64,000 nucleotides of DNA from a virus. Under the pieces are notes generated by a model. That model was not told where the DNA came from. It searched no databases and worked only from the letters and a program-made list of their open reading frames with translations. Both the position numbers and the translations under genes were made by a program. Positions 34,351 through 62,522 of this stretch are shown here, one piece after another; positions within the stretch are counted from its first letter, which is position 1, and each line of letters starts with the position of its first letter. Location: positions 1-64,000 of IMG/VR virus record IMGVR_UViG_3300036791_000797. One strand, written 5' to 3'.

Positions 34351-34605
34351 ATGCCTGCCCAGCGTTGTCCCGGCTGTAGCGCTCCTCTGCCCGAGGAGCG
34401 TCACCGGGAGGAGACCATCCGCACCGAGAGCGGCTACCAGATCCCCGTCATCGTCTGCCCCAACCATCCCCGCGGCACCCTGACCATCGGCCCGCCCGAA
34501 GGGTTCCGCTTGATGGAGGACGACCTCCAGGCCCCCGGCGCGTCCGAGCCCCCTCCGGTGATAGAGGGGGCTCGGGTGGCTCAGGGCCGGGTCAGCGACG
34601 TTTAG
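34351..34605 (+). CDS. small Zn-ribbon protein
   Basis: GGAGG SD; CPGC...CPNH. Confidence 0.6.
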   Translation: MPAQRCPGCSAPLPEERHREETIRTESGYQIPVIVCPNHPRGTLTIGPPEGFRLMEDDLQAPGASEPPPVIEGARVAQGRVSDV

Positions 34606-35693: not shown

Positions 35694-35700
35694 GGCAGGT

Positions 35701-35729
35701 ACGTTAGCAAGGATCCTTAGAGAAGTCAA
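35701..35729 (-). promoter_or_regulatory. repeated leaderless promoter, copy 1
   Basis: TTGACT-TCTCTAAGGATCCTTGC-TAACGT-N7-ATG(35693). Confidence 0.85.
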
Positions 35730-45544: not shown

Positions 45545-48214
45545 ATGACCCTGATGGGCTTTGAGGTTCGAGCGGCCAAGGCCAAGGGCGAGCGCAGTTC
45601 AGATGAAGAACAGCCGGATCGTCAGCCCATCCGCCCGGCCGAGGTCTCCCCGGCCCAGCGGCGCAACCTGACCAACGAGGAGCGCACCGTCAAGCGGCGG
45701 CGGCGGCGCGTCAACGCGGCCTTCACTCAGCCGGGCTACTACCTGGTGGACAAGGACGCCGCCCCGCAGTCCGAGCGCTTCGACACCATGAGCGAGGCCG
45801 AGGCCCAGCTACAGCCGGAGTCCGGGCAACTGATCCAGTACCTGGACCAGGCCCCCAACTCCTCCCACATCGCAGAGCCCTTCCCGCCCAACCTCAACCA
45901 AGTCAACGGGAGCCTGTCCATGTCTGCCCACCTCGATGACGAGTTCCTCTTCGTAGCTGGCATGGGTGGTGAAGAGGCCGACGCCGACGAGGACGAGGGG
46001 GCGCAGAACGCCAAGGACGAGGATCTCATCGCCCAGGGGGCCTACACCCCCGAAGAAGAGCGCGAGAACGAGGAGATCCGCCGGGCCAACGAGGAGCGCC
46101 GTCAGCCCGCCCCTTATGAGATCGCAAGCTGGCAGAAGAAGGAATCCCTGCAGGTACGGGAGGCCCGACTCCTGGCTGCCATGGCCAAATCCTCGGGCGA
46201 CGAGCAGCGCCAGATCATGGGGGAGCTTGAGGGCCTACGCCGGGAGGCCCGACGCCAGGTGGTAGCCGATCGGGAGATCGACCTGACCGACGCCTACATC
46301 CATGACTCCTTGACCCCGGTGCGGGTCCATGAGCATCACACTGCCGCCACCGACTGGATCGAAGAGGTAGCCGAGCCCGCCTACGACGCCAGCACCGTCC
46401 ACCGGGCCATGGTGGTCGAGGCCCGGCGCTGGATGGCCGGAGTCTCCCCGGCGGTCAAGGAGGACCGGGACGAGTACCTGGAGCAGGCCCGTGGCGTGGC
46501 CCGCATCAATGCCTCGGCCATGGGGCCGCACCGGGATCTGGCCTTCCAGACCTTCATGCGGACTGCGGCCGACGGCGAGAGCGGAGCCCTGCCCTGGAGC
46601 GCACCACCCATGGAGTTGCCCCCCACGGGTGGCGGTAACGCCCCCTTCGGCGTCCCCCAGGGCGGGGCTCCCCTCAACGGCCAGAACTTCAATCCCATGG
46701 CCACAGAGGTCTATCCCGGCTCCCAGCCCCTGCCCCTCGACAACGGGGCCTCAGCCTGGCCTCCGGCCGACAACCTCGAAGGCGAAGAGCCCCTACCGCC
46801 GGTCGCTCCCGACAACTACAACGCGGTCGGGGCCGACACCCATATGTCGGCCCTGCAGCGAGAGGCCGACGCCAAGGAGTACTCGCCCCGCTCAGGCATG
46901 GGCGGCCAGGAGCAGACCAAGCCCTGGAAGGCCACCCACACCTACAACCCCATCGGCTGGGACGCCTTCGACGCCCGTCCCCACCCCGGCTCCAAGGCCA
47001 TCACCCCTGGCGTGCCCATCCAGAACCACGGCTACATGAGCCCCCGCGGCCCCGGTGGCATGCGCCTGGTCCATGTCTCCGACGAGGCCGGGAACCACCA
47101 GACCATCGACAGCCGCTCCCTGGCCGCTTACGACGGCCCCAATCCCGATCGACCCAACGTCTTCGAGAGTCGCCGTCGCCAGGCCTCCGAGGCCTTCAAT
47201 GGCCCCAAGCAGACCTACGCCGAGTACCAGGCCCGGCTGTCCGAGGGATCTGAGCCCATGGACGAGGAGCATTGGGCCGGGTCCATGAGCGCGGTCAGCC
47301 CGGCTGCCACCAACACCGTCACCCCGGTCACGGCCATGTTCCGCTGGGCCGAGCGGGGCACCGACCCCGACCCCCAGGGCAACGACCTGGCCGGAAATCC
47401 CATGGCCGGGTACCCCGAGGGCGGCGACTGGGACAAGGACGAGGCCCATGCCCAGTCCGGCGAGGCCCAGTCCAACCTGCCGCTGGCCCCCGAAGGCCCC
47501 ACCGTCACCCAGCACCTGGACTTCATCACCGACTTCCCCGACACCGGCCCCACCGAGGTGCCCTCTGATCGAGCCTTCAACATCTCGGCCAACGGCAGTC
47601 ATACCGGAGCCACCGTCAATGCCCCCTATGCCTGGGACCCCGGCTACGCCGACGAGGACATCGCTGACGACTACGCCAACCATCAGTACATGAGCGAGAT
47701 CCCCCACGATTTCGAGCCCCAAGGCAACTCCCAGTACTGCCGTACCTGCGGGGAATCCCGCCGTCATCCCATGCACGTCTACGCCCGTCGAATGGCAGCC
47801 AAGCCACCCCCTGACGTGGGTGAGGACGAGAGCCAGGGCACGTCCGGGTGGAAGCCCCGTGAGGATTACGCCACTACCCCCGGTGGCCAGGCCGCCTCCA
47901 CCGAGCAGTACGAGCAGGCCTACTCCTCCGGGCGGAATATCGACTACACCGAAACAGGCATCGGGCAGTTGGGCACCGTGCCAGTCCAGGGCTATGGGGC
48001 CAATCCCAACGGGGAGATGTTCACCTGGGAGATGGCCCCCGGTGGAGTACCGGTGGGAGCCGCCAACGTGGCCGATGTGCCGCCCCCAGGGGCCGGACAG
48101 GTCGGGGCGGCACAACCCACCGACCTGAACAACCCGGAGTCCCCTGAGGGCAGGGAGGCGGCTCTGCGAGTCGTCCGGGATCGAGTCCGCTACAACCTGG
48201 GAGCCCGGCGATGA
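45545..48214 (+). CDS. large acidic mosaic protein, putative head/internal polyprotein
   Basis: 889 aa; HEHHTAATDW block; linkers ending MRTAA, LQREA, RRQAS, MFRWA. Confidence 0.75.
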   Translation: MTLMGFEVRAAKAKGERSSDEEQPDRQPIRPAEVSPAQRRNLTNEERTVKRRRRRVNAAFTQPGYYLVDKDAAPQSERFDTMSEAEAQLQPESGQLIQYLDQAPNSSHIAEPFPPNLNQVNGSLSMSAHLDDEFLFVAGMGGEEADADEDEGAQNAKDEDLIAQGAYTPEEERENEEIRRANEERRQPAPYEIASWQKKESLQVREARLLAAMAKSSGDEQRQIMGELEGLRREARRQVVADREIDLTDAYIHDSLTPVRVHEHHTAATDWIEEVAEPAYDASTVHRAMVVEARRWMAGVSPAVKEDRDEYLEQARGVARINASAMGPHRDLAFQTFMRTAADGESGALPWSAPPMELPPTGGGNAPFGVPQGGAPLNGQNFNPMATEVYPGSQPLPLDNGASAWPPADNLEGEEPLPPVAPDNYNAVGADTHMSALQREADAKEYSPRSGMGGQEQTKPWKATHTYNPIGWDAFDARPHPGSKAITPGVPIQNHGYMSPRGPGGMRLVHVSDEAGNHQTIDSRSLAAYDGPNPDRPNVFESRRRQASEAFNGPKQTYAEYQARLSEGSEPMDEEHWAGSMSAVSPAATNTVTPVTAMFRWAERGTDPDPQGNDLAGNPMAGYPEGGDWDKDEAHAQSGEAQSNLPLAPEGPTVTQHLDFITDFPDTGPTEVPSDRAFNISANGSHTGATVNAPYAWDPGYADEDIADDYANHQYMSEIPHDFEPQGNSQYCRTCGESRRHPMHVYARRMAAKPPPDVGEDESQGTSGWKPREDYATTPGGQAASTEQYEQAYSSGRNIDYTETGIGQLGTVPVQGYGANPNGEMFTWEMAPGGVPVGAANVADVPPPGAGQVGAAQPTDLNNPESPEGREAALRVVRDRVRYNLGARR

Positions 48215-51200
48215 CTGACCTGTGGATGATGGCCGGTGAGGAGGCCGAGCGCGACGCCTCCGATCACCTGCTGGCCCTGGCCCGAGTGGCCTGCGCCTGC
48301 TACTGGCCGGTGGTGGCCTCGGTGACCACCAAGGAGGGCCTGGACCACGCCAAGGCCCTGATCTCCGATGGGGTCACCACCTCGGTGACCGGCATCGCCA
48401 CCTCCCCGGCTGAGACCGCGGTGCTGGCCTCACGGGTCCTGGACAGCTTCTCCGAGGACTGGGAGGCCCATATCGCGGCCAAGCAGGCCGTGGTTGAGAA
48501 CGCCCCGGCCTACGCCGAGCAGATGGGCTTCGGGTTCCCGGCCGAGCCCCTGCCCAACGAGGCTCCCGCCCTGGAGGGTGAGATCGCGGCCTGGGAGGGT
48601 GCTGACCAGCAGAGCCGGGTCAATATGGGCAACGGCCTGGGGGTCTCTGACGACTCCTCCGGCCCCAATGTGGCCGGGCCGGGAGCCAACCCCGGCGAGA
48701 CGCCCCTCCTGCATGCCAGCGCCCTGGACATCGAGGCCGGTCTGGAGCCCGGCGATTATCGCCTGGATGCTTTCGGGGCGCTCATCCGGGTGGAGGCCAC
48801 GCCTTGGAGTCATCTGAAGGAGATGAATCCAGGCGAGATGAGTGACCAGGAGCTAGAGAACCATCTCATGCTCCACCACAATCAGATGTCAGTCTCTGAT
48901 TATGCTCCATTGAATGCTGATAAGCATATGGAGATCCATGGCAATCCCGGTCAGTATGGATCTGCCCGTCACGGTCATGGTGCTTATTCCGGTGAAGAGT
49001 GGGATGAAAGTGGTCGTCTCTCCCATCTCGTCTTAGCTGACAAGGCTCCGTATTACATCCGGGAGGAAGGCGGCAAGTTCAAGGTCGTCAACCGCGAAGG
49101 TGAGGTAAAGGGCACCTTCGACAGCAAGGACGCCGCCCGCCAACAGCAGAAGGCCCTCTACGTCAACATCCCCGACGCTCCAGGGAAGGCCGAGAAGGCC
49201 CACGGCCACACCCCTGAGGCCGTCTCCGACGTGGGCAAGAAGGCCAGCCGTCGCACCGCCAGTATCCGGCTGACCGCCCTGCAGCAACAGGCCGTCCGGG
49301 CAGCCCGTGCCCTGGTCGATCAGATGCCCACCGAGGCCCAGCATCACGCCGTGGCCAAGGCCATGCTGATGCGAGCCCGTGGCTTCGAACTGAGCCCCAT
49401 AGAGACCGACCTGGTCATCACCGCGGCGCTCCAGCGCGTCACCGAGCGGCAGGCCGGAGGGGGCCTGGATTTTACCCGGCAGGCCGCTGACGATCGCAGC
49501 CATTGGCCGCGCTGGGCCGCCAGGGTCCATACCTTCGATGACTCGGGGCATGCCTACAACCGCAGTCAGACCGATGATGAGATCAAGAACGGCGATGTCT
49601 TCCACATCCCCGAAGAGGGCATCACCGGCTACATGCACAAAGCGTGGCCCACGGCCGTCACCCAGAACAAGGGCGCGTTCCATGGGCTAGAAGAGCCTGC
49701 CTCTTATGCCGGTCCTCGGGGTGAAGGCCACAAGATCTGTCAGACCTGCGATGGCAATGGCCAGGCGAAGCCCGGAGCCAATGCTCCCTACCGTGAGCCC
49801 GGCGACACCAAGTGCTGGGGATGCGGTGGCAAGGGTCACTACGAGGGTGACTCACTGGAGACGGTGCAAGCCTTGCACAATGGTTGGCGGCAAGCCCGAG
49901 AGCTTGCTACCCAGCATGGCTATCCCGTCGATGGCATGGGTACTACTGCTGCTAAGCACTCTGCTGCTAAGCACTCTGCTGAATGGCACCAAGGGTTTGA
50001 GCATGGTGTATCAGGTCAAGCTGAGCAATATCCTGATGAGTTCAGTCCAGAACAAGTTGATGATTACAGCGATGGACATGAAGAGGGACGCCGGTCACGC
50101 GGTCGTAGTGATGATGATCGGCGTTTTCTAAGCTCGATCCACACCGCCGACGGCGTACCTGAGTCCAAGCGAGATCGGGCTGAGAAGGCCGGTGACACCC
50201 TGCCCGGCACCGACAAGTTCCCTATCGAGAACGCCCGTGACCTGGAGAAGGCCAAGCACGACATCGGGCGTACCAATGAGCCTCATGATAAGGTCGTCAA
50301 CTACATCGATCGTAAGGCCGAGGAGTTAGGTGAGCCTGGAGTCGGTGAGGATGATGAGGGGAAGAAGGCAGCCCTGCAAAAGGGTGCCCCTTTCGCCGGT
50401 TACAAGGACTTCCATGACTGCGTGAGGAAGAATCAGGACAAGGATGATCCTGAGGCCTACTGCGGTCAGATCAAGCATCAGGTGGAGGGATCCAGACAGG
50501 GTCGGATGGGACGGTTGTGGGACCGACTCATGGGCCGTACCGCCCAGGGCATGGGCATGGCCAACCCCATGGACCCCTCCTCGGTGGCCAACCCCTTCTC
50601 CCCGGCCCAGGATGTCAACGCGGCCATGACCGACACCAATCCCACCATGGGCGGGGGTGCGGCCGGAGCAGGTGGGACCATGGATCCCTCCACCACCCCG
50701 CCCGACGAGATCCCCGGCCAGACCGTGCCCGGCTCGGCTACGGCGGCCTCCTCTAAGCCCCGTACTAAGCCCTCCAGCAACCCCAACGCCCCCAACCAGC
50801 CATCTCCCTCCCAGCTTGGCGGGATGCCTCAGCCGGGGATGATGGGTGGCACACCCATGGGTGGTCCGATGCTCACCAGCATGCCCATGATGGCCGGTCG
50901 TGCCCAGGTCCTGGTGGCCTCGTCCATCCTCAACGACAACCCGGAGATGTCCGACGACGAGGCCCTGCACCTGGCCTCCAGGACCATCGAGCGCTACCCA
51001 CACCTGGTCCATCAGGCTTACGGAGGATTCGACTTCCCTTTTGGCGAGGAGGACACACCGGGTAGCTACACGGTCTGTCCGCAATGCAACGCCAATACCT
51101 TTGACGGTCGTAGCGGGCATTGCCACAACTGTGGATACCTCGGTGGTACCGGCTCTCCAGGCTTCGATCCCCTGGTAGGTCCAACCACCATAAGACCGGG

Positions 51201-51372
51201 ACAGTTCGACATGCGGAATCCAGGTCTTACCGCTGCTTCTTACAGTGTGAGAAAGTGTAGATCTTGCGGAAATCAAGTCAGGGTTCAACTTGGCCAGGAT
51301 TTCCCCGAGGATCATGCTGATTACTGTCCAGAGCAGGCAGATTTTCCTGGCAGAAAAAACAGGGAACAGTAG
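48211..51372 (+). CDS. large mosaic protein, putative head/internal polyprotein
   Basis: 1053 aa of short modules (PYYIREEGGKFKVV..., DnaJ-type Zn finger, KFPIENARDL..., PFAGYKDFHDCV..., Zn ribbons). Confidence 0.75.
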   Translation: MTDLWMMAGEEAERDASDHLLALARVACACYWPVVASVTTKEGLDHAKALISDGVTTSVTGIATSPAETAVLASRVLDSFSEDWEAHIAAKQAVVENAPAYAEQMGFGFPAEPLPNEAPALEGEIAAWEGADQQSRVNMGNGLGVSDDSSGPNVAGPGANPGETPLLHASALDIEAGLEPGDYRLDAFGALIRVEATPWSHLKEMNPGEMSDQELENHLMLHHNQMSVSDYAPLNADKHMEIHGNPGQYGSARHGHGAYSGEEWDESGRLSHLVLADKAPYYIREEGGKFKVVNREGEVKGTFDSKDAARQQQKALYVNIPDAPGKAEKAHGHTPEAVSDVGKKASRRTASIRLTALQQQAVRAARALVDQMPTEAQHHAVAKAMLMRARGFELSPIETDLVITAALQRVTERQAGGGLDFTRQAADDRSHWPRWAARVHTFDDSGHAYNRSQTDDEIKNGDVFHIPEEGITGYMHKAWPTAVTQNKGAFHGLEEPASYAGPRGEGHKICQTCDGNGQAKPGANAPYREPGDTKCWGCGGKGHYEGDSLETVQALHNGWRQARELATQHGYPVDGMGTTAAKHSAAKHSAEWHQGFEHGVSGQAEQYPDEFSPEQVDDYSDGHEEGRRSRGRSDDDRRFLSSIHTADGVPESKRDRAEKAGDTLPGTDKFPIENARDLEKAKHDIGRTNEPHDKVVNYIDRKAEELGEPGVGEDDEGKKAALQKGAPFAGYKDFHDCVRKNQDKDDPEAYCGQIKHQVEGSRQGRMGRLWDRLMGRTAQGMGMANPMDPSSVANPFSPAQDVNAAMTDTNPTMGGGAAGAGGTMDPSTTPPDEIPGQTVPGSATAASSKPRTKPSSNPNAPNQPSPSQLGGMPQPGMMGGTPMGGPMLTSMPMMAGRAQVLVASSILNDNPEMSDDEALHLASRTIERYPHLVHQAYGGFDFPFGEEDTPGSYTVCPQCNANTFDGRSGHCHNCGYLGGTGSPGFDPLVGPTTIRPGQFDMRNPGLTAASYSVRKCRSCGNQVRVQLGQDFPEDHADYCPEQADFPGRKNREQ
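49946..49981 (+). repeat. 15-bp tandem duplication
   Basis: CTGCTGCTAAGCACT x2 plus partial copy, encoding AAKHS-AAKHS-A. Confidence 0.85.
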
Positions 51373-51864
51373 ATGCAAAAGACCTCCGTACCCGAGGGCG
51401 CACGGGTCGCCTATGCCGGTCTTCCGCATCACGATGTCGATATCGGTGACGAGGGTAAGGTCCTGCAGACCAGCGGTCGTATGTGCCACGTCATCATGAG
51501 GACGGGGGCCAACGTGGGTCAGGTGGTCCTGGTGGACCAGGGAGACCTGACCGTCCTGGCCTCACCGCGCCACGCCATCGATGACTCCCTCCTGGATGGC
51601 TCTCTGGACGAGCCCACCCTGGTCACCACCGCAGTGCGGAGCGTCTATGAGCGTCAGGGGGAGAAGGGCCTCATCACCGCCCTGGCCAACCGGGGGGAGC
51701 TACCGGATTTCTTCGAGGTGGCCGAGCAGGCCGTCCAGCAGGTGATCGCCACCGTGCGCCAGGATCCGATCATGATCAGGGTGCTGGCTGAGCTTGATGA
51801 CGAGGAGGGTGAGAACTTCATTCAATCATTGGCCTTGTCGGCCATTGACGAGGTCATTGGATGA
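51373..51864 (+). CDS. hypothetical protein (SH3-like N-terminus)
   Basis: AGGGA SD, GC3-rich. Confidence 0.7.
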   Translation: MQKTSVPEGARVAYAGLPHHDVDIGDEGKVLQTSGRMCHVIMRTGANVGQVVLVDQGDLTVLASPRHAIDDSLLDGSLDEPTLVTTAVRSVYERQGEKGLITALANRGELPDFFEVAEQAVQQVIATVRQDPIMIRVLAELDDEEGENFIQSLALSAIDEVIG

Positions 51865-52958
51865 GCGAAACGGCTACCGATAGGGATCGGACTGGTGACA
51901 CTCCGATGTATTGCACCAAATGTAAGAAGATGGTGCAACGGCAGAGTGATTGTCCTAAGGGTGGGAACCATCATCTGCTCTCTATCTCTGACAAGGGTGT
52001 GCAAGGTCAGGGCCATGGGGATGGACCGGAAAGCACCAGGAACTCTGAGGAGTCCGATCCGCACAAGGTATCCCGCAAGCTGGTCATTGCCGGAGTAGAC
52101 CCCGACTGGAATGGTAAGCACAAGTTGCAATGGATGGGTCGAGGACGAGATGCACGGGGACAATGCTCCTGTGGGATGTGGGCGGAGCTTGGAACCTATG
52201 TCATGCCAAGTAAGAAGGTGCAGAACGTGAAGGACAAGTTCGCTCAGCACTTACAGCATGCCACCGATCATCCTGAGTACTATCAAAAGGAAGCCTCGGT
52301 AGCGCATCCCAACGATCGCATTCGAGCCTATGCCATGCAGTATCTGGCTCATGATTCCGGTGATGGTCAGACCGTCTACCACTGTCCCTTCTGCGGTGGT
52401 GGCAACGTCATCGGCCGTTCTGACGGCACCATCGAGTGCGGGTTCTGTAACACCCATTTCACCGTGCAGGTCCAGCCCGAGTTCGCGGGCATGCCCCAGA
52501 CCGTCGATGGTCAGCCCTATGACGTGCCCGGCATGCCGGGTGGTGTCGATCCTATGACCGGCCTGCCGCCCGACCAGGGTGAGGACGAGGGGATGGGTGA
52601 CGAGGAGGAGATGCCACCGGGCGGGGCCGAGATGGGCAGCCCTGAGGACGAGGAGGCTCAGGGCAAGAACGGCTCCTCGGTGCCTTGGGAGCATCAGTCG
52701 GCCAAGAAGACCTGGACGGCTGTGTGCAAGGACTGCGATTGGCAGTCCACCGAGTCGCGTCAACGTGATGCCTACAACCGGGCTGTGGGGCATGAGCGTG
52801 AGACTCGGCCAGCCCAGTTCAAGAGTGGTCATCGCGTTCAGCTAAGAGATGATTCCAAGCAGGCCAAGCGTTACATCTCACCTCTAGGAGCTATGACCGA
52901 GCGACAATACATGGCGCATCTCGCTCTCCTTCACAGTGTGGTGGTAAAGAACGGATGA
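51861..52958 (+). CDS. multi-Zn-ribbon mosaic protein
   Basis: HCPFCGGGNVIGRSDGTIECGFC plus further CxxC/H modules. Confidence 0.7.
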   Translation: MSETATDRDRTGDTPMYCTKCKKMVQRQSDCPKGGNHHLLSISDKGVQGQGHGDGPESTRNSEESDPHKVSRKLVIAGVDPDWNGKHKLQWMGRGRDARGQCSCGMWAELGTYVMPSKKVQNVKDKFAQHLQHATDHPEYYQKEASVAHPNDRIRAYAMQYLAHDSGDGQTVYHCPFCGGGNVIGRSDGTIECGFCNTHFTVQVQPEFAGMPQTVDGQPYDVPGMPGGVDPMTGLPPDQGEDEGMGDEEEMPPGGAEMGSPEDEEAQGKNGSSVPWEHQSAKKTWTAVCKDCDWQSTESRQRDAYNRAVGHERETRPAQFKSGHRVQLRDDSKQAKRYISPLGAMTERQYMAHLALLHSVVVKNG

Positions 52959-52961
52959 CGT

Positions 52962-53342
52962 ATGCCTGTGCCCCCTCTGATCCAGCAGGCCATTGTCAAT
53001 ATCTATCCGAACAATGGGTCTATTTATTCATCGGAACATGAGTGTGAAGGTGCGAAGTTTCATTCCCCCAATCCCCTCATCGTCCATGAGACCAACCTCG
53101 TTCCCTGGGATCCACATCCGCCAGTACACATCGTCTGGCTCTGTGGTACGTGCCGAGGCAATCTCTGGGTATATCAGCGTCTCCTGCAGGAGCGAGGAGG
53201 AGATATCCCCTGGGCTATCCAGCGCTCTTTCGGCAATGCCATCCGAGCCTTGGCTAAACAAGGATGGGAGATCTATCAAGCCGATGATAATCGACATTCC
53301 CATCCTCCGAGTAGTTGGTCTTTGAGGAGCAATCATCTCTAG
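52962..53342 (+). CDS. hypothetical protein
   Basis: CEG..FH...WLCGTC. Confidence 0.6.
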   Translation: MPVPPLIQQAIVNIYPNNGSIYSSEHECEGAKFHSPNPLIVHETNLVPWDPHPPVHIVWLCGTCRGNLWVYQRLLQERGGDIPWAIQRSFGNAIRALAKQGWEIYQADDNRHSHPPSSWSLRSNHL

Positions 53343-55458
53343 TATCTGGACTCCGACCGGGGAGCATCCCATAGGCGAGCGGGACTCCGATGTCCTGGCC
53401 AAGCTGGCCACGGCCTCGCTACGGCGCGGCATCTCGGAGGGTCCAGGCGAGGAATCCCCCGAAGTTCAGGAGATGCGGAAGAACCGTCGCATCAACCGCA
53501 AGCTCAACGGGGTCAGCCATCAAGCCGATCTCCTCAGTGGGGCCGGGGCCAGCAGCCTGTCGTTTGCCACCGGGCGTCCTCAGGACCCCATGTTCTACTG
53601 GAAGCAAGCGAATCTCCCTTACGATATCTGGAAGGAAGAAGAGCTTGTTGTTATCCGCCACTACTGCAGGCTTCTTTATCTTACTCATCCACTGTTGGCC
53701 TCAGCCATCGATATCTTCAGCAAATACCCCATGCAAGGCATGGAGTTGAACTGCAAGGACAACGAGCTTGTTGACTTCTATGGAACACACTTCCTCGATG
53801 ACCTGAACTACCCCGAGTATCTCACCGATGTCCTGCATGAGCGCTGGCTGGTAGGAGAGGCGTGGCCCCTCGGGCAGTGGAACGACACCCTGGGCATCTG
53901 GGAGGACGACGAACTCATCAACCCCGATGACGTGGATGTCATCAAGAGCCCGTTCATCAAAGAGCCCCGCTTCGAGATGCGTCTGCCCGAGACGTTGCGC
54001 TCCATCCTCAAGGAGCGCCAGCCCGAGTGGGAGTACAAGAAGCTGGTCAACGCCTACCCCGAGCTTCTGGCCTTCCTGGCCGAAGACTCCCGCATGCCGG
54101 TGTCCAACATCCTGCTCAAGCAGATCAAGTTCAAGGCCGACACCTTCCACCCCCGCGGCATCCCCATCCTGATGCGAGGCTTTAGGGCCATCTTCCAGGA
54201 GGAGATGCTCAACGCCGCCCAGGACGCCATCGCCTCTCGGCTCTACACCCCGCTCATCCTGGCCAAGATCGGAGCCTCGGCCACCGACCTGGGCACCCAG
54301 TATCCCTTCATCCCCACCGCCGCGGACCTAGCTGACTTCGAGGAGGCCCTGGACGAGGCCCTGGCTGCTGACTTCCGGGTCCTGACCCACCACTTCGCCC
54401 TGACCATGGAGTCGGTATTCGGTCGGGAGGTCATGCCCGACCTCAGCGGCGACTTCGAGCGCCTGGCCGAGCGCCAGCTACAGGTCTTCGGCATCTCCAA
54501 GACCATGCTCTCCGGCGCGGGTGATGGTGAGACCTACGCCGCCGACGCCCTGAACCTGGACATCATGAGCCAGCTACTGGGTGGGGCGCAGCGGCTCATC
54601 AAGAGGTTCTTCAAGGATCGGGCTCTGGTGGTGGCTGAAGCCCAGCAGCACTGGGACTATGAGATGCGGGGTGGCAAGAAGTTCCCGGTCATGGAAGAGG
54701 TCCTCGAAGTCGATGAGGAGACCGGTGAGAAGCGCATCATCGAGCAGCCCAAGCTGCTGGTGCCGGACCTGGTCATGAAGTCCATGGACATGAAGAACGA
54801 CACGCTGCGACGGCAACTGCTCGAAGAGCTACGCAGCACGGGGGTGCCCATCTCCATGAAGACTCGCCTGACCAACATCGAGATCGACCTGGACGACGAG
54901 ATCGAGGCCACCCGTGACGAGCAGATCAAGATCGCGGTGGCCACCCAGGAGACCCGTCGGGACACCTTCTCGGCCCTGGCCGCCCAGGGCCTGCCCATCC
55001 CCGACGACCTGGAGCAGGACTTTCGGGCGGTGGCCCTCGACGCCGAGCCGGGTGGACCGGCAGCCGAGCAACTACCTCTACCCAACATGGCCATGGACCC
55101 GGCTGGAGGTCCGGCCACGGCCCTGACTCCTGGACCTGAGGACTATGCCGCCGCCGACGAGGCCGAACAGGAAGGCGAGGCTCCCGGCGACGTAGGAGCC
55201 TCCAATGCCTCTCCTCCACCGCAGATGCAATCCAATATGGCGGCGATAATACCGTTGCCTCGTCAGCGTATGCGCCCTCCAGAGTCTGATGAACGACGCG
55301 GTGAGATGCCGAAGAAATCCAGCTTGCAAAGCGATGATGGTGAGGAACTTGAAGAGGGATCCTACCGACTGCTCAGCGGCCCGGCCCATATTGGCCAGCG
55401 CCGCTACGTGTACCTCGACCCCACCGAGCCCCTGCCCGATCCTGACTCAGAACGATGA
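53335..55458 (+). CDS. portal protein (possible ATC start at 53335; first ATG at 53473)
   Basis: THPLLASAIDIFSKYP, RGIPILMRGFR...AQDAIASRLYTPLILAKIG resemble big-actinophage portals; size and context fit. Confidence 0.72.
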   Translation: MSSIWTPTGEHPIGERDSDVLAKLATASLRRGISEGPGEESPEVQEMRKNRRINRKLNGVSHQADLLSGAGASSLSFATGRPQDPMFYWKQANLPYDIWKEEELVVIRHYCRLLYLTHPLLASAIDIFSKYPMQGMELNCKDNELVDFYGTHFLDDLNYPEYLTDVLHERWLVGEAWPLGQWNDTLGIWEDDELINPDDVDVIKSPFIKEPRFEMRLPETLRSILKERQPEWEYKKLVNAYPELLAFLAEDSRMPVSNILLKQIKFKADTFHPRGIPILMRGFRAIFQEEMLNAAQDAIASRLYTPLILAKIGASATDLGTQYPFIPTAADLADFEEALDEALAADFRVLTHHFALTMESVFGREVMPDLSGDFERLAERQLQVFGISKTMLSGAGDGETYAADALNLDIMSQLLGGAQRLIKRFFKDRALVVAEAQQHWDYEMRGGKKFPVMEEVLEVDEETGEKRIIEQPKLLVPDLVMKSMDMKNDTLRRQLLEELRSTGVPISMKTRLTNIEIDLDDEIEATRDEQIKIAVATQETRRDTFSALAAQGLPIPDDLEQDFRAVALDAEPGGPAAEQLPLPNMAMDPAGGPATALTPGPEDYAAADEAEQEGEAPGDVGASNASPPPQMQSNMAAIIPLPRQRMRPPESDERRGEMPKKSSLQSDDGEELEEGSYRLLSGPAHIGQRRYVYLDPTEPLPDPDSER

Positions 55459-55466
55459 AGGAGTGA
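55431..55466 (+). promoter_or_regulatory. putative phage-specific (late) promoter
   Basis: CCTGCC-N20-GAAGGAGTGA-G-ATG(55468). Confidence 0.65.
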
Positions 55467-55467
55467 G

Positions 55468-58400
55468 ATGCCCTTCTCGTCGTTCACTGCCATCTTCAGG
55501 ACCAGGTTAAATGGGCCAGTTGGTGCCGTCCAGGATGAAGGCAATGGCTCGGCGGCTGACACCGAACTCCTCCGCAAGGCGGGTCTTCTCTCCTCGGATC
55601 CCAGTCGATCGGGCGCGGATATCCAGGACTTGAGCGGCCGTGAGCTTCTCCCCTCGACCGATTACGAATCCTCTGCGGGTGGGTGGGTGGACCGCCCTGC
55701 CCTTGGCCAGTTTGTCTCGCATGTTGTCGAGGTTGGTGCCGAGCCAGAGGTGATCGAGGGTGACACACAGCGGCACATCGCAGGTGTGCAGTACATGCAG
55801 TTCACCGGGATTAGCGATGAAGTGGGTGTAGGCCCAGCGATGGGCTGGGATCATGCGATTGCCATCCCGGAAGTAGCCGTACCCTCTGCGTTGGGCAGCC
55901 GTCCACAGCCAGCAAGGACCGCTTCGATCGACCTTGGCCCAGAAGCGCTCCTCGATGGTGGGCACGTTGGCAATCTAGCTTCAGATTCCTACCCGGAGCT
56001 TTCTGAGGTCCTACTCCAGAGACCCCCGCCCAACTCCCACCAGGCGGCCGTGGATGGCCTGTGCGCCCTCTGTGAGGCCGAGCCTGCCACCCAGGAGATC
56101 TCTGGCACCACCGTAGGGGATCGCTGCGCTGAGCATCTCATGGGCGTCCCTGGGGCCGGTACAGCCCCTCCTGAGTTCGGTCAGGCCGTCTACGGGATGG
56201 CCCACACTGCCTCCTGGGAGTCCGAGGATCGAGAGCGCTACAAGACGATCCTCAAAGACCAGCCCGAGGAGCCCTGCGGCAACTGTGGGCAGCCCATCAA
56301 GTTCGATGACGAGACCGAGACCTACGTGGCCAAGGACGGCTCCCAATGCCCGAGCGAGGATGGCCATGATCCTCTGGGCAGCACCAGCCATGAGGCCGGG
56401 ATCCTGGACTGGCTGGACCGCAAGCTGGCCCCTACCGGCCTGGTGCCCGAGCAGGGTGGTCGCTGGAGCTTCGACTGGTGCCGGTACCGTCACAACTCCC
56501 ACTGCTTCTACCCCGCCGGGCTTGACGCCGGAGCCTCCTCCCAGGCGGGCTACGCGGTGTGGACCCCGCAGGACCGGGGTAGCTGCCCCCGCTTCACCTG
56601 GGAGTCCCAGCAGCAGTGCCCCATCGGCGCGCCCGGCCCTCATGCTGGGGGCACCCCCGACGCCTATACCCAGCAGCAACCGGTCCAGCCCCGAGGGTTG
56701 TTGCAACGACTCCTGGGTTCCAAAGATGCTAAGGATGAGGATTTCCACTGGCATTTCTGCGCTAAATGGGCAGATGTAAGAGCCAAGGCAGCCCGGATCA
56801 GACGTGAGGGTGGCGTGCGTATCATCAGCGCCCCTGATGCTCGCAATCCCTATATCACTGCCGAGGTCAAGGGTGATAACCACACCTATCAGACCACCAT
56901 CCTTCGCTCCATCGGAGGAAAGTCGGTAGCCGGATGGGAATGCACCTGTGCCTGGGCGCACTACGCCTGGGGCCGGTCTGGTAGATGGAAGAAGTTCGAG
57001 GGCCGACAGTGCAGTCACGCCCTGGCCACCATCTACCAGGCCCAGGCCGACGAGATGTTCGGCGGCCGGGTCAAGGAGATCTCCCGCCAACCGGCCACCT
57101 TCGACCAGCCCGGCGACGAGGGCCAGTTCAAGAAGGTCTGGCAGTACGACCCCGACGACGAGAAGCGCAAGGAGTACGTCGAGCGGGACTGGCGCAAGGA
57201 TCCCACCAAACGCTCCGGTAAGGCCCCCGAGTGGGTCAAGCAATACGAGGGCAGCTTAAGGGTCATCGCCCAAGAGACCGAACAGGTCAAGGTCGGTGAT
57301 GTGCAGCCGGGTGATCGGGTGCTTCTCACCGGATATGAGAAAGAAGGTCCGCATACTGTCAAGAGTGTTCGCGATGGAACACCAGCTAAGAGGATCGAGC
57401 CTTACGAGGATAAAAAAGAACGTACTCTGCGGGGGATCATAGAGCATGATGACCCAGATCATTATCCGCCGAAGGACTATGGGACTATTCCCATTCGGCA
57501 TTTCGATCTAGCGGGAACATTCGATCACATCGCTCTTCCACATCATGCACCGATCAAGCGCCTGACGGCTTCCTTGAGCTTCTCCGAGGAGCGGCCTATC
57601 GCCATGGAGGCTGAGGCCCGTCTGGAGGCCGGTGAGAGCCCCCAGGCCGTCCTGAGCTACCTGCGGGCGGCCGATGCTCCTTGGCCCGAGTACATCCTCA
57701 CTGAGGCCCTGCACAAGCCTTTCGTGGCCCGCGACCCGGCCGATGAGCTACACACCATCGTCAGCCTCGAAGGGGAGCATGCGGTCACCGACAACGGGGA
57801 TCTCATCCCGGCCGAGCATCTGACGCATCCCGACTTCGACTGGCACAGCGGGCTGTCGTTCCAGGGACAAGCTCAGACCAACTCGGCGGAAGTCCAGCAG
57901 GACCCCGTCGAACACGTCAACGCGGATGGGTCCCCGCACAACGGGGTCATGGTGGCCCTGGTACCGCCCGAGAAGGTGCGTGAGGGGCTGGCCGTCCAGG
58001 ACGGCGAAGCCCCGGAAGACATGCATGTAACCGTCGGTTACCTGGGCAAGAAGGACAGCGTCGATCCTGAGGCTTTGCACCGGGCCGTGTCCTCCTTCGC
58101 CCAGCAGGTACCACCGCTGAAGGGCAAGATCAGTGGGTTCGGTAACTTTGAGGTTGATCCTGAGCGTAACGATGGCTTTTCCCATGCCCATGTTGGGCTG
58201 GTGGACATCCCCGGTATCTCCGACTTCCAGGCCAAGCTCGATGAGCATCTTGGGCGCGAGGGCCTGAAGGTCAACAACGAACATGGTCTGCAGCCCCATC
58301 TCACTGTCGCCTACGGGCATGAGCCCGCTGAGTACGACAGCATGCCCGATACCACCGACCATTTCGACCTCCCTCACATCACCGTAGCCCACGGTGGGAC

Positions 58401-61173
58401 CTGGACCCACTATCCCCTCCAGGGCAGCCCGGAGGCCCAGAAGACCGGCATGCTGCGCTGGGCCAGAGGTCCGGTCCATGGACCCATCCTGAATCCCCAC
58501 TGGCAATCCCCCGAGGCCCCCAAGGGTCGCTCGAAGGGCCGGGCCGATGATCCCAACGCCACCAAGTTCTCCACCTACGAGCCCAAGTTCCAGGAGAAGA
58601 TCGCCAACCAGTTCCACAGCAACGTCCCCTCAGAACTCGGCATCAACACCCATCGAGACATGGTCGAGAACATCAAGGGGATGTACCGGGAGGCCAAGGC
58701 CACCAATCCCAAGGCCATCAGAGAGGGCAAGAAGTGGTATTCGGATGCCCACAACTTCGCCAAGGGATTAGCTCAGAAGCATCCTGGTGGGAAGCTGCGT
58801 ACAGCGCTGGGTATGACGGCGGCCCTCTCGCCCCAGAATCACTGGGAGGAGAACAAGACCCAGGCCGAGTATATCCACCATCATCTGAGTGCTGATCCCG
58901 ACTCCGAAGACGGTCGCTTCAACATCTCGCATGAGGATGCTCAGGCGGCCATGAAGAAGCAGTCCAAGCAAGCCAGCGTGAAGAAGGGTTATCGCCAGGT
59001 ACAGCAGTTGACGCCCGGCAAGCGCTTTGCCGACATGGAGCCCGAGGAGGCGGCCCACTCCCTCAAGGCCCAGGCCCAGTACACCCACAAGCTGAAGGTG
59101 CCGGGGCGGATCAAGAACGACGGCGATCCTTGGAAGGCCACCTTCGCCAACGGCACCGGCTCGATCGCCAAGGCCGTGCGGATTCATCGGGGTGAGGATC
59201 CCGATGATGTTTTGCAGGGTCATAAGGTCCGCTCTTTCTTCAACAATATGGCGGATCACACCAACAAGCAGAAGCGTGATGATGTCACTATTGACACGCA
59301 TGCTGTCTCGTTGGCGGCTGGGGCCAAGTTCGGAGCTAGCGCTCCTGAGCTAAAGAAGATGTTCGCCAATGGTGCCAACAAGAATCAGAACGTCACCGGC
59401 ACTTACGGCTATGTCGCGGATGCCTATCGCCAGGCTCATAAGGAGCTACAGGACTCCGGGGAGATGTCCAAGACCTCGGCTCCCCATCACCTGCAGGCCA
59501 CCACCTGGTTGCACTGGCGGGACATCAACGACGAGCCCGGCAAGCTGAAAGAGGCCAACAAGGGTCGCTTCAAGGACTACTCCGGCGAGAACGCTGCCCG
59601 CAACAAGCGCAACAAGGAACTCTACGGCGAGGACTACGAGGGCGACGAAGACGAGGACGAGGGCATGTCCGCGGCGGCCAGCCTGCATGTGGCCCAGGGG
59701 CATGACATCGGAGAGGCGGGCAAGCTCCTCGACCCCTCCAACTACGACGAGAACGCCGCCGATCCCGACTTCGACCCCGATCTGGCCGAGGATGCCCTGG
59801 ACGCCGAATGGGATGCCGAGCCCGCCGAGATGGAGCAGCGCTGGCAGGACTCCCAGGCCAAGCAGCCTCGCACCTCCATGCTGCGCTGGGGCGCGGTCCA
59901 GGGTGACGACATGGACACCGATGACGTGGATTCTGACACTTCAGATGAAATGGCGGATGCCTCGGCGGTGCAGAAGCAGTACGCCGATCAGGCCGACGAC
60001 GCTCAAGACGACTTCTACTTCAACTACCCCACCGACAGCCAGAGCCCCTTCCCCAACGACCCCAACAAGGTGCCGCCCTACATGAGCGCCACGCCCCACG
60101 GGGCTATGCTCCACTGGGCTCGCCCCCGGCCCGATCGCCTCTTTGATGTCAGTGATATCCCCACTAAGAAGGGGCCGTATCAGGAGCCTCGATCAAACCC
60201 GAACTTCGAGCATCCTTACGAAGGTCCCATAGGGAAGTATCTGTATCATCACAGTCCGCCTGAGAATCGCAGTTCCATCATGGAGCATGGTCTGCAGCCC
60301 CGTGATCCTCAGGAAAGCTCAGCTAAGGGATCTGATATTCCTTCTGAACGGACACCCGAAGGTGTCTACTTAGGACCATACGATCACATCGGTCCTCACC
60401 AGCGTGGATCTGATGTATGGGCGGTGGATACCAACAAGGTAAGGCTCCATCAAGATCCTGATGATGACGAGAACTACTGGGGATTCCACTACTCGGAGGA
60501 CCCCGTGCCGCCGGAGGCCATGAAGCTGGTGCATCGGCATCCCAGCGTGGCCATGCTGCACTGGTCAGCCGAGGCGGCCGAGGAGATGCTCAGGGATGAG
60601 CCCGAGGGCGCGCTCCCATCTACGGATGGTGGAGCCCCCTCAGAGCTTTGGGAGAGCCAGCACTCCACCACTGCCCCCGATCCCATCAGCGCCGGTCCTG
60701 CGGGCTTCGGCAGTCCCCTGGACCCCGGCAGCGAGCATGAGGACATGGGCTACCCCGAAGCCGACGAAGCGGTCCTGCGCCCCTCCGGTGGTCCGGGCGC
60801 GGGGTCGTTCATGAACGAGATGGAAAACAAGATGTATGGCCTTGACTACGCCTCCTCCCTCCATGCGGGGACCGTAGGTCAACAGAGCCGGGCATGGCTG
60901 CTACAGGCGGATCCTCATCGAAGTGCAGGTGGTGACCAGGGCATTCGGGATTCCGACATAGCAGCCATGGCTCGGCAGTTTCTGCAGACCGGGGAGGTGC
61001 CGGGTCAGTCCAAGGTGGCGGCCAAGGTGTTCAGCCCGGCCGAGCAGGTCGAGTTGATCCAGGAGGGCTCGGCCGACGGCACCCGCGCCTCGAACCTGGA
61101 CCGCCTGCAACTGGAGGGCACCCACTACCTGGCTGACGAAGATGACGAGGATCTCGATGGGTTGTTCGGCTGA
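55468..61173 (+). CDS. 1901-aa polyvalent protein: SWIM finger, 2H phosphoesterase, glycosylase-like and ADP-ribosyltransferase-like domains
   Basis: ECTC...CSH (~56935-57027); HVTV (58024) and HLTV (58297); WY...AALSPQNHWEEN...KVRSFF...TIDTHA...QATTW (~58730-59520); YHHS..N..SIMEHGL...GVYL...VPPEAM (~60235-60530). Confidence 0.85.
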   Translation: MPFSSFTAIFRTRLNGPVGAVQDEGNGSAADTELLRKAGLLSSDPSRSGADIQDLSGRELLPSTDYESSAGGWVDRPALGQFVSHVVEVGAEPEVIEGDTQRHIAGVQYMQFTGISDEVGVGPAMGWDHAIAIPEVAVPSALGSRPQPARTASIDLGPEALLDGGHVGNLASDSYPELSEVLLQRPPPNSHQAAVDGLCALCEAEPATQEISGTTVGDRCAEHLMGVPGAGTAPPEFGQAVYGMAHTASWESEDRERYKTILKDQPEEPCGNCGQPIKFDDETETYVAKDGSQCPSEDGHDPLGSTSHEAGILDWLDRKLAPTGLVPEQGGRWSFDWCRYRHNSHCFYPAGLDAGASSQAGYAVWTPQDRGSCPRFTWESQQQCPIGAPGPHAGGTPDAYTQQQPVQPRGLLQRLLGSKDAKDEDFHWHFCAKWADVRAKAARIRREGGVRIISAPDARNPYITAEVKGDNHTYQTTILRSIGGKSVAGWECTCAWAHYAWGRSGRWKKFEGRQCSHALATIYQAQADEMFGGRVKEISRQPATFDQPGDEGQFKKVWQYDPDDEKRKEYVERDWRKDPTKRSGKAPEWVKQYEGSLRVIAQETEQVKVGDVQPGDRVLLTGYEKEGPHTVKSVRDGTPAKRIEPYEDKKERTLRGIIEHDDPDHYPPKDYGTIPIRHFDLAGTFDHIALPHHAPIKRLTASLSFSEERPIAMEAEARLEAGESPQAVLSYLRAADAPWPEYILTEALHKPFVARDPADELHTIVSLEGEHAVTDNGDLIPAEHLTHPDFDWHSGLSFQGQAQTNSAEVQQDPVEHVNADGSPHNGVMVALVPPEKVREGLAVQDGEAPEDMHVTVGYLGKKDSVDPEALHRAVSSFAQQVPPLKGKISGFGNFEVDPERNDGFSHAHVGLVDIPGISDFQAKLDEHLGREGLKVNNEHGLQPHLTVAYGHEPAEYDSMPDTTDHFDLPHITVAHGGTWTHYPLQGSPEAQKTGMLRWARGPVHGPILNPHWQSPEAPKGRSKGRADDPNATKFSTYEPKFQEKIANQFHSNVPSELGINTHRDMVENIKGMYREAKATNPKAIREGKKWYSDAHNFAKGLAQKHPGGKLRTALGMTAALSPQNHWEENKTQAEYIHHHLSADPDSEDGRFNISHEDAQAAMKKQSKQASVKKGYRQVQQLTPGKRFADMEPEEAAHSLKAQAQYTHKLKVPGRIKNDGDPWKATFANGTGSIAKAVRIHRGEDPDDVLQGHKVRSFFNNMADHTNKQKRDDVTIDTHAVSLAAGAKFGASAPELKKMFANGANKNQNVTGTYGYVADAYRQAHKELQDSGEMSKTSAPHHLQATTWLHWRDINDEPGKLKEANKGRFKDYSGENAARNKRNKELYGEDYEGDEDEDEGMSAAASLHVAQGHDIGEAGKLLDPSNYDENAADPDFDPDLAEDALDAEWDAEPAEMEQRWQDSQAKQPRTSMLRWGAVQGDDMDTDDVDSDTSDEMADASAVQKQYADQADDAQDDFYFNYPTDSQSPFPNDPNKVPPYMSATPHGAMLHWARPRPDRLFDVSDIPTKKGPYQEPRSNPNFEHPYEGPIGKYLYHHSPPENRSSIMEHGLQPRDPQESSAKGSDIPSERTPEGVYLGPYDHIGPHQRGSDVWAVDTNKVRLHQDPDDDENYWGFHYSEDPVPPEAMKLVHRHPSVAMLHWSAEAAEEMLRDEPEGALPSTDGGAPSELWESQHSTTAPDPISAGPAGFGSPLDPGSEHEDMGYPEADEAVLRPSGGPGAGSFMNEMENKMYGLDYASSLHAGTVGQQSRAWLLQADPHRSAGGDQGIRDSDIAAMARQFLQTGEVPGQSKVAAKVFSPAEQVELIQEGSADGTRASNLDRLQLEGTHYLADEDDEDLDGLFG
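55507..55965 (-). mobile_element. HNH homing endonuclease gene, antisense and nested in the 1901-aa ORF
   Basis: ERFWAKVDRSGPCWLW...GYG...AHRWAY...VLHTCDVPLCV..DHLWLGTNLDNMRD + KLT...HTH tail; TAGATT -10 box 6 nt before the GTG. Confidence 0.9.
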
Positions 61174-61529
61174 TGGCTGACCTGGAGCGCTACCCCGACG
61201 GCGACGTGGAGGAGAACGGCCTCCTGGCCTATCGCCTGTTCCGCCCGGTGCTGCCGCATGTGCTGGTCGAGGAGCTAGAGGCTGAGGCGGGCACCGAAGC
61301 TCTGCATCTGACCTTCGAGGGTGACATCAGCGCGGCCTCAGAAGAGGACCCGGTCATCATCTACGTGCCCGAGACGGTCAACACCAAGCACATCACCCGT
61401 GTCCTGGCCTCCCATGATCACCGTGCTGCCCCTCATGCCATGGATGCCATCAGGATGAAGCTAGACCATGATGAGCAGCTAACCATGGAGGAAGTCTCTC
61501 AGGCGCTCAAGTTCTTGCTGGGGGCGTAG
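61173..61529 (+). CDS. hypothetical protein
   Basis: TGATG and TAGTG coupling. Confidence 0.7.
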   Translation: MADLERYPDGDVEENGLLAYRLFRPVLPHVLVEELEAEAGTEALHLTFEGDISAASEEDPVIIYVPETVNTKHITRVLASHDHRAAPHAMDAIRMKLDHDEQLTMEEVSQALKFLLGA

Positions 61530-62521: not shown

Positions 62522-62522
62522 T

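Follow-up and report, generated by a model that had tools for sequence, protein, structure and literature searches.

The three giant genes that flank the portal gene of an uncultured phage, and a five-residue peptide that recurs within two of them, are the subject of this work. The stretch of DNA analysed (hereafter the window) corresponds to positions 1-64,000 of an IMG/VR virus record of 84,645 bases (IMGVR_UViG_3300036791_000797; the whole contig is denoted G000), whose completeness is rated 58%, and the G+C content of the window is about 60-67%. A complete relative of 156,983 bases (IMGVR_UViG_3300021478_000015, hereafter G001) aligns collinearly with the contig between 0.8 and 80.4 kb of G000, with a nucleotide identity of 68-84%. 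A DNA-level search for cultured phage relatives gave no match, and at the protein level the search led to single modules only. The source is best explained as an actinobacterial myovirus of roughly 155 kb, kin of the Bxz1/Alice, Myrna and E3 group. The portal region of the window contains three giant open reading frames (ORFs A, B and C, with a combined length of 3843 residues):

45545..48214, + strand: giant ORF A (P0001, 889 residues), a mosaic head-region protein
48211..51372, + strand: giant ORF B (P0002, 1053 residues), a mosaic head-region protein
53473..55458, + strand: portal protein (P0004, 661 residues), phrog_2833 'portal protein', E=5.7e-133
55468..61173, + strand: giant ORF C (P0003, 1901 residues), a multi-module protein of polyvalent type

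The portal protein has an identity of about 36-38% to those of Rhodococcus phage E3, Gordonia phages and the cluster C mycobacteriophages (Alice, Myrna), and the three giant ORFs, which flank its gene, are found in a virion/late gene setting. E3 and Alice have a matching gene order, their counterparts being located between the genes for portal, protease and capsid. A first-pass annotation, made from the letters of the window alone, had described these ORFs as multi-module and portal-flanking, and this description agrees with the portal match between them, the domain matches and the alignments. The same annotation spoke of effector modules, a term that is justified only in part: the recognisable modules are limited to ORF C (a 2H module, a DUF7178 module, a region homologous to the 'LysM-like' proteins of relatives and a weakly supported ART/Tpt1-like module), and ORFs A and B gave no match to any Pfam, PHROG or NCBIfam family.

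In a search of 5.8 billion proteins, seven near-full-length homologues were found for ORF C (34-84% identity), plus more distant ones, and its alignment contains eight sequences including P0003 (the counts out of eight given below refer to this alignment). ORF A has 30 homologues besides the query, 15 of which were aligned with it (16 sequences, 51-91% identity), while the alignment of ORF B contains 17 sequences. The domain limits were set by profile matches, stand-alone homologues and insertions or deletions (indels).

The pentapeptide and its looser forms

The strict form of the peptide, M-[LF]-[RH]-W-[AGS], is found at the following places, the last of which contains two copies:

47336..47350, + strand: MFRWA delimiter at residue 598 of ORF A; M and W invariant in 16/16 homologues
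58450..58464, + strand: MLRWA delimiter at residue 995 of ORF C, between the 2H and DUF7178 modules
59878..59892, + strand: MLRWG(A) delimiter at residue 1471 of ORF C, with P-R-T-S upstream
60106..60567, + strand: putative ART/Tpt1-like cassette with MLHWA (60106) and MLHWS(A) (60553), an indel with respect to the relatives

A six-frame scan of the 64-kb window gives exactly five matches, all on the + strand, one in ORF A (47336) and four in ORF C (58450, 59878, 60106 and 60553), which reproduces the five copies in two giant ORFs reported in the first-pass annotation. Shuffled versions of the three giant ORFs contain on average 0.03 matches and none of 300 shuffles reaches five, ruling out chance or composition as the source of the motif; the 88 other called ORFs (19192 residues) contribute one match in the enrichment count. 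The motif is also conserved among relatives. Across the 16 homologues of ORF A the site reads M-[FIMLV]-[RH]-W-[AGS], and in the eight C-type proteins the site at residue 995 has M, L and W identical in 8/8 and R and A in 7/8, while at residue 1471 (counts that include gaps) M is identical in 7/8 and W in 8/8. A slightly wider pattern, M.[RHVK]W[AGSV], has 33 copies across the eight C-type proteins (three to seven per protein), and M.[RHV]W[AGS] is limited to the close clade, with 32 copies in eight proteins and none in the 13 other large proteins examined.

What recurs at the DNA level is the 13-15 nucleotide core coding for the motif, alone, and within this core the copies vary synonymously (CTG/CTC, CGC/CGT and CAC/CAT, with GCC, GCT, GGC or TCA for the last residue), from which it follows that selection acts on the peptide; a DNA-level repeat or site was rejected on the same grounds. 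An internal translation start at the motif methionine was likewise discarded, given that the upstream codons differ, that no purine-rich stretch resembling a ribosome-binding site can be seen by eye, and that Met is replaced by Ser in some of the orthologous copies. Additionally, the fraction of order-promoting residues in the flanks (±15 residues) is 0.198 (against a background of 0.24), a value as low as which was not found in any of 5000 random sets. The motif is a small hydrophobic island within polar linkers.

Besides the strict copies, the three ORFs contain looser sites, which the first-pass annotation had proposed to close other modules under the general form [RKH]-x-A:

46556..47188, + strand: looser sites of ORF A, MRTAA (46556), LQREA (46853) and RRQAS (47174), at conserved/variable junctions
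49249..50388, + strand: looser sites of ORF B, RRTAS (49249), TRQAA (49474) and KHSA (49954 and 49969), positions located
within 49249..50388, + strand: further looser sites of ORF B, SSIHTAD (50131) and LQKGA (50374), positions located
56197..56400, + strand: Zn-ribbon cassette of ORF C with MAHTAS (56197) and SHEAG (56386) flanks, from the eight-sequence alignment
59680..59697, + strand: SLHVAQ, a hybrid delimiter of ORF C, from orthologous-site comparison

The plain [RKH]-x-A pattern has no discriminating power (72 occurrences against 56.5 expected in the giant ORFs of the window, and 107 against 105 in G001). More restricted forms are enriched: [RKH][TEQ]A[AGSD] occurs 14 times against 3.5 expected (0/300 shuffles) and is four times as frequent as in the other ORFs (Fisher p=2e-4), and a unified form, [MS][LIAVMF][RH][WTVEYL][AGS], occurs eight times in the three ORFs against 0.67 expected (0/500 shuffles), compared with six against 4.5 in the other ORFs. 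When the alignments are read by eye, 10 of the 11 looser sites fall at junctions between conserved and variable blocks; the exception is KHSA, which is peculiar to the phage of the window among the 17 ORF B sequences and marks no junction.

The relatives show what happens at these junctions. In ORF A, the homologue P0166 has a 127-residue Zn-ribbon insert following FM.TA, and a hypervariable block directly precedes [RH]x[AGS]S. In ORF B, the RRTAS position is occupied in six relatives by a Zn-ribbon cassette, which comes after R-H-[TI]-A in five of them and after LQTTA in the other; the string ...GR/TAQG is kept in most of the 17 sequences and is interrupted (at the slash) by a 150-residue cassette in four relatives and by a different insert in P0197; [LR]HTAD lies upstream of a conserved module that is placed differently in the proteins of the window and of a relative; and 8/17 sequences have a cassette that begins, on its left, at LQKGA. 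The Zn-ribbon cassette of ORF C is present in 3/8 sequences (P0003, P0007 and P0013), each time with two H-[TE]-A flanks, and the sequences lacking it have instead a single HTAG (in four of the five) or KTGG (in P0010).

The site orthologous to SLHVAQ reads SIHWAA in P0010, SLRYVAA in P0009 and SLHV in P0007 and P0008, and the H-T-A and M-x-x-W forms are therefore tied together. The [HKR]-T-A form reaches further than the strict one. Among the distant relatives that share the conserved C-terminal tail of ORF C, it occurs 11 times against 2.35 expected in P0017, 14 against 2.71 in P0057, 6 against 1.08 in P0019, 6 against 1.36 in P0065, 5 against 1.24 in P0018 and 5 against 1.18 in P0096, with a weaker excess in P0014 (4 against 1.50), P0092 (6 against 2.03) and P0015 (2 against 0.76), while two unrelated DUF7178 proteins have no excess of it in the same shuffle comparison. 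Cultured phages have it as well, namely in gp90 (6 against 1.48), gp81 (4 against 0.89) and gp75 (3 against 0.42) of Alice and in gp77 of E3 (4 against 0.75). The best explanation appears to be that MLRWA is the strong, clade-specific variant of a more general delimiter, [MS]-hydrophobic-[RH]-[WTVE]-[AGS], of which [HKR]-T-A would be the older and more widespread form.

Cassettes and modules of the giant chains

The clearest cassette is enclosed by the copies at residues 1547 and 1696 of ORF C, which are 149 residues apart. The collinear G001 lacks the corresponding DNA (G000 60105-60567), and the junction can be read directly from the two sequences, with ...PHGAS-MVRWG-AEAAEE... in G001 and ...PHGA-MLHWA-(cassette)-MLHWS-AEAAEE... 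in the window. The cassette is present in two of the eight C-type proteins; the others have one motif at that place, where the window has two. Other inserts occupy the same spot in P0009, P0013 and the fragment P0025, with an M-x-x-W copy closing each, and in P0012 and P0013 the interval from DUF7178 to the acidic segment accommodates two to four extra cassettes, each of which has M-x-[RH]-W-[AG] at its end. The motif is not a part of the ART-like domain itself, given that six stand-alone homologues (115-163 residues), which align to about residues 1555-1690, do not have it. These observations, together with the Zn-ribbon insertions and several other cassettes in relatives, bear out the earlier proposal that new domains are recruited by insertion between motifs.

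The same cassette is found in a different type of chain. P0016, a 3122-residue protease polyprotein from another relative of ~156 kb, contains it as a stretch of 153 residues, DRLFDV to LVHR, that is 71% identical, and its flanks there are ...GLNGFIAV... and ...GLWAFAAD... in place of MLHWA and MLHWS. Since the flanks change in this way, the form of the delimiter belongs to the host chain and not to the cassette.

As for what the cassette (60121-60552) encodes, the first-pass annotation had called it ART-like. The bracketing by 60106 and 60553 stands, and the ART-like identity is weakly supported: the cassette matches Pfam PARP with E=0.26, and a profile of the family (15 sequences) matches, in the PDB, RNA 2'-phosphotransferase (Tpt1) with E=0.0076 and PARP1 with E=1.4. 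The family has invariant Y-H, G-L and D-x-W. Kinship to the Arr-ms module of the relative was considered and discarded, since hhalign shows none.

The two modules separated by the copy at 58450 are better defined:

58006..58341, + strand: 2H phosphoesterase (LigT-like) module, residues 847-958 of ORF C; Pfam PF13563 E=6e-9, PF02834 E=9e-6
58648..59265, + strand: DUF7178 module; Pfam PF23802 E=9.4e-29 (residues 1061-1173), phrog_3842 and phrog_2878 (residues 1061-1266)

The 2H region also matches a PHROG 'RNA ligase' (residues 817-984) and, weakly, TIGR02258. The module on the other side had been called glycosylase-like, a label for which Pfam, PHROGs, NCBIfam and the PDB (by sequence or profile) give no support; the copy does separate the 2H domain from the next one, and this next domain is DUF7178. 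The copy at 59878 stands ahead of the conserved acidic segment.

In order to compare delimiters and indels over whole alignments, we counted the indel boundaries lying within eight residues of a delimiter and compared them with 1000 sets of randomly placed delimiters. In family C, 26 of 97 boundaries are near a delimiter when all delimiters are considered (11.3 expected; 1/1000 sets reaches this value) and 17 of 97 when only MxxW is (4.1 expected; 0/1000), and with all delimiters the values are 47/190 in family A (28.4 expected; 0/1000) and 51/157 in family B (17.5 expected; 0/1000). These shuffle counts are indications and not probabilities, because the events are shared among kin and the alignment edges are fuzzy. 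With this reading of the numbers, indel boundaries are found near delimiters more often than near randomly placed ones in all three families, in line with the location at module edges that the first-pass annotation had described. The motif is real, non-random and conserved as a peptide; it is located in linkers and at cassette boundaries, and cassettes are swapped between its copies.

The remaining features of ORF C are the following:

55507..55965, - strand: HNH endonuclease gene in antisense; Pfam HNH_3 E=5.7e-6, score 26.3 bits (cut-off 24.8)
56761..57048, + strand: module common to E3 gp76 and the cluster C 'LysM-like' proteins; tblastn with E3 gp76 217-309, E=1.9e-16
60949..61128, + strand: conserved C-terminal tail, FSPAEQ..LI.EG...ASNLD.L.LEGTHY, ~50 residues, matching the C-terminus of E3 gp76

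The N-terminal MPFSSF of ORF C is common to 7/7 homologues, and the insertion bearing the HNH gene (about residues 13-168 in the + frame, within the first 170 codons) is missing from all seven. The + frame of ORF C runs open across this insertion (55468-55980), with MPFSSF retained, and the database gene call for ORF C begins only at residue 244. A group I intron around the HNH gene was looked for in Rfam, which gave only a chance snoRNA match (E=0.078), and was discarded. The module shared with the 'LysM-like' proteins is covered by phrog_30974 (residues 432-527), with matches in Myrna, Phabba, Skog, Finch and others. It is Cys/His-rich by eye, and no library gives it a name; we take its pattern to be SWIM-zinc-finger-like.

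The C-terminal tail is the most widely shared piece of ORF C (1.84 billion representatives searched) and is placed near the C-terminal end in the rows examined (P0046, P0049, P0051, P0057, P0065 and P0092), in proteins of up to 3189 residues. Upstream of it one finds K-[TVEQ]-A-A in ORF C and RTAG in E3 and Alice. The tail is possibly a capsid-loading tag. As a separate observation, four of the distant relatives (P0014, P0057, P0092 and P0096) have apparent inteins, which interrupt the conserved Cys/His-rich motif that these proteins have in common with ORF C and a WSFDWCRFR..HC motif, an assignment based on precomputed Pfam Hint_2 and Intein_splicing matches for P0014 and made by eye for the other three. 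Beyond ORF C, from window 61529-63512 to G000 64515, there are three tandem paralogous ORFs of 329-333 residues with a common N-terminal region of ~120 residues; in this region all three match phrog_38058 ('tail fiber protein') and one matches phrog_23837 ('virion structural protein').

Candidate cutting enzymes and alternative explanations

We tentatively read the three ORFs as capsid-cargo polyproteins, whose delimiters would be sites of the head-maturation serine protease and whose cassettes would be exchanged from delimiter to delimiter, and we regard this as nearly, though not quite, an even chance. In the proposed mechanism, these head-associated polyvalent proteins would be strings of exchangeable cassettes joined through polar linkers, and each linker would hold a five-residue delimiter ([M/S]-hydrophobic-[R/H]-[W/T/V/E]-[A/G/S]) that the phage protease, in complete relatives the N-terminal domain of a 3100-residue polyprotein, would recognise and cut. 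The chains would be loaded into the procapsid, perhaps through the conserved C-terminal tail, and then cut apart inside. Because each cassette would need a delimiter at both sides, cassettes would be gained, lost and moved as delimiter-to-delimiter units. We infer the cutting, the identity of the cutting protease, the packaging and the delivery to the host from sequence comparison.

The prohead protease, which the first-pass annotation had suggested looking for elsewhere in the genome, is found in the complete relative. The protein annotated as 'prohead protease' in E3 (gp77) matches G001 98,121-98,663, which is the N-terminus of a 3116-residue ORF (98,031-107,381; L009:3032-12379), and the region 98,031-98,660 matches phrog_18299 'head maturation protease' (E=3.7e-24, residues 55-206, the domain ending near 209). 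By collinearity, this is about 13 kb past the point that matches the end of the contig. Following the protease, the same chain contains NUDIX, Arr-type ART, ParB-like, GNAT and other modules, in the manner of a classic polyvalent protein, and these are separated by a third delimiter form, GL-x-[AG]-F-[VIL]-A. The strict version of this form occurs six times against 0.01 expected, a pattern tolerating conservative changes gives nine matches, and with a slightly looser first position eight of the nine six-frame matches in G001 lie in this ORF; the copies at 1158, 1281 and 1406 bracket the Pfam NUDIX (1014-1135) and Arr-ms (1292-1395) matches. It was also noticed by eye that the N-termini of the E3 and Alice capsid proteins (GSGLGRFAKAS) resemble GL-x-[AG]-F-[VIL]-A.

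After the protease domain one reads ...AQKTAH in G001, whereas Alice has NNKTAG and E3 has KRKQAY at this place, and a 743-residue scaffold-like ORF of G001, located ahead of the cement and capsid genes, contains ASLHTAD. Because the protease's own domain boundary and the scaffold-like protein carry H/K-T-A, and because hybrid sites connect this form to MxxW, we favour the prohead serine protease, which is the most economical candidate for the cutter.

Several observations weigh against this assignment. The contig itself holds no such protease (E3 gp77 gives no match against its 84.6 kb). MxxW does not occur in the protease chains of 3116 residues (G001) and 3122 residues (P0016), nor, in a six-frame scan, in the scaffold-like and capsid ORFs of G001; protease chains, scaffold and capsid being the classic substrates, this lack is a real weak point. 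Three delimiter forms coexist in one genome, whereas proteases of the T4 and phiKZ type have one site each; the coexistence could reflect a second enzyme, cutting in cis versus in trans, a kinetic hierarchy, or concerted evolution of the linkers under a tolerant protease. Only about a quarter to a third of the indel boundaries, which are not mutually independent, lie near a delimiter. Finally, the strict copies had been said to sit at module edges, and domains or the cassette confirm this for 58450, 60106 and 60553, while the ORF A copy at 47336 coincides with no indel (0/190) and lies within a conserved stretch.

As an alternative, the delimiters may be cut by some other enzyme, for which a SprT-like zincin (its gene being 5 kb downstream) and a host protease active once injection has taken place are candidates, with the prohead protease handling only GL-x-x-F-x-A or [HKR]-T-A. 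The zincin in question is the following:

66502-67173 of G000 (L003:5503-6174): SprT-like zincin ORF, 223 residues, in the late region; VILHEIAHCL signature, SprT-like E=0.0027

This ORF, 2.5 kb beyond the end of the window, is kept in the relative (G001 75578-76204) and may be a second processing enzyme. That, within a genome, no chain combines MxxW with GL-x-x-F-x-A, and that the ART-like cassette bears the delimiter of whichever chain hosts it, would fit such a division of labour, as would the two HE..H strings of P0016 (HETAH and HETAHIL), which we read as zincin-like, and the proposal that zincin MPTase domains process polyvalent proteins (Iyer et al., 2017; PMC5512222). We consider it unlikely, nevertheless, since the SprT-like match remains under the Pfam cut-off (18 against 25.6 bits), HExxH and peptidase matches are lacking in all three window ORFs (P0001-P0003), and the hybrids SIHWAA, SLHVAQ and SLRYVAA join MxxW to H-T-A, the form that adjoins the protease domain and occurs in the scaffold-like protein. 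Apart from this, a 375-residue ORF of the window (34602-35729, - strand) has a zincin signature, YYSTLFHEMGHSTGH, conserved in the relative; this ORF looks ArdC-like (anti-restriction).

Two further explanations dispense with cutting at these sites. The motif could remain uncut and act as a Met-x-x-Trp docking knob that binds the capsid interior, the scaffold, the portal or a host protein and provides multivalent anchoring, much as the capsid-targeting sequences of T4 and the cargo-loading peptides of encapsulins do. A hydrophobic island amid polar linkers is what such a knob would look like, and its recurrence in two unrelated head-module proteins, its invariance in ORF A at a place that is no cassette boundary and its absence from the usual protease substrates all point in the same direction; it would leave unexplained, however, why every cassette is bounded at both sides and why another delimiter takes over when the cassette sits in another chain, and the motif passes gradually into [HKR]-T-A-[small residue], a form that has the look of a protease site and is found after the protease's own domain, so that we hold docking to be quite unlikely, though less so for the copy in ORF A. 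Very unlikely, in our view, is that the motifs are mainly recombination joints, produced by microhomology shuffling and homogenisation within the gene, with a peptide devoid of function. Direct repeats of the 13-15 nucleotide core do flank the cassettes, and chain-specific delimiter forms are what concerted evolution within a gene would give, but the peptide is constant despite synonymous codon differences, M and W are invariant in 16/16 ORF A homologues (51-91% identity) at a site without cassette turnover, and 13-15 nucleotides is very short for homologous exchange.

Returning to processing by the head-maturation protease, a bolder extension of it may be formulated as a 'punctuation code' for capsid cargo, in which plug-and-play enzyme cassettes would be combined with a delimiter peptide proper to each giant chain. 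The portal-side chains would use M-x-[RH]-W-small and the protease chain GL-x-x-F-x-A, H-T-A being the older form, and a cassette moving between chains would take the other delimiter. The delimiters would then set the protease, the order of cutting or the place of release, and serve at the same time as exchange joints. We find this generalisation attractive and, as it stands, doubtful.

Significance and comparison with known systems

Polyvalent proteins are thought to be injected counter-defence arsenals, and their division into working units has hitherto been conjecture. With a conserved junction peptide one can predict exactly where the chains would be cut and which mature products would result, and the relatives provide natural experiments, in the form of one cassette with different delimiters and of the presence or absence of a cassette between duplicated delimiters. 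Since [HKR]-T-A is found in the cultured phages Alice, Myrna and E3, the idea is testable at the bench now. If true, the motif would make it possible to delimit cargo modules automatically across hundreds of genomes of actinophages and would reveal how phages recruit new enzymes into the capsid. A search of the literature, covering main texts, retrieved nothing on junction peptides or cut sites for phages of cluster C or of the E3 type, nor any data on cut ends in virions of this group, and the words 'cleavage' and 'protease' have no occurrence in the Myrna capsid paper (PMC7150772).

Among the known systems that invite comparison, the MuF polymorphic toxins of temperate phages are portal-adjacent head proteins with variable enzymatic or toxin modules at the C-terminus. 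The variable modules of the window, in contrast, are internal and multiple, and no MuF domain was found in the three ORFs with Pfam, PHROGs or NCBIfam.

The prohead proteases of T4 (gp21) and phiKZ (gp175) cut head proteins at short motifs. The likeness lies in a capsid-maturation protease that cuts many head proteins, including itself, at a short motif, the products being packaged with the DNA. In phage SPN3US, for instance, gp245 cuts head and ejection proteins after A-x-E, at 14 sites in nine substrates that include itself (PMC10052503). The known sites of this kind end in Glu (A-x-E or L/I-x-E) and mostly serve to remove N-terminal propeptides, whereas the delimiters described here have a small putative P1 residue (Ala, Gly or Ser), lie between modules all along the chain and come in at least three forms. 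A parallel for the P1 residue may be drawn with herpesvirus assemblin, which belongs to the same fold class as the phage prohead serine proteases and whose Ala in P1 resembles, by eye, R-R-T-A↓S, H-T-A↓S and R-W-A. The assemblin sites have the form (V/L/I)-x-Ala↓Ser, and the enzyme differs from the system proposed here in cutting only itself and the scaffold, with no multi-cassette cargo.

The nearest relatives in concept are the polyvalent proteins of phages and conjugative elements, defined by Iyer, Burroughs, Anand, de Souza and Aravind in 2017 (PMC5512222), and the polyvalent-protein idea is thus already published. These proteins are very large, string unrelated domains together, occur in a virion-gene setting and are expected to accompany the DNA and to be split into units, and 2H is named as a phage-type domain; ART, NUDIX, GNAT and ParB-like modules are found in the chains of our relatives. 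The multi-domain character of polyvalent proteins is seen in ORF C and not in ORFs A and B. The text of the paper (whose supplementary architecture lists may include such proteins) does not contain the word 'linker', names no junction or cleavage peptide, assigns processing mainly to zincin MPTase domains and reports assemblin-like peptidases located C-terminally; it does not present an in-chain processing peptidase as universal. In the lineage of the window, by contrast, the three ORFs have no peptidase, the serine protease is N-terminal in a chain of its own, and there is a defined junction peptide. What is added here to the polyvalent-protein picture is the M-x-[RH]-W-small form, the clean insertion of cassettes between duplicated delimiters, and a cassette that changes its delimiter with the chain that hosts it.

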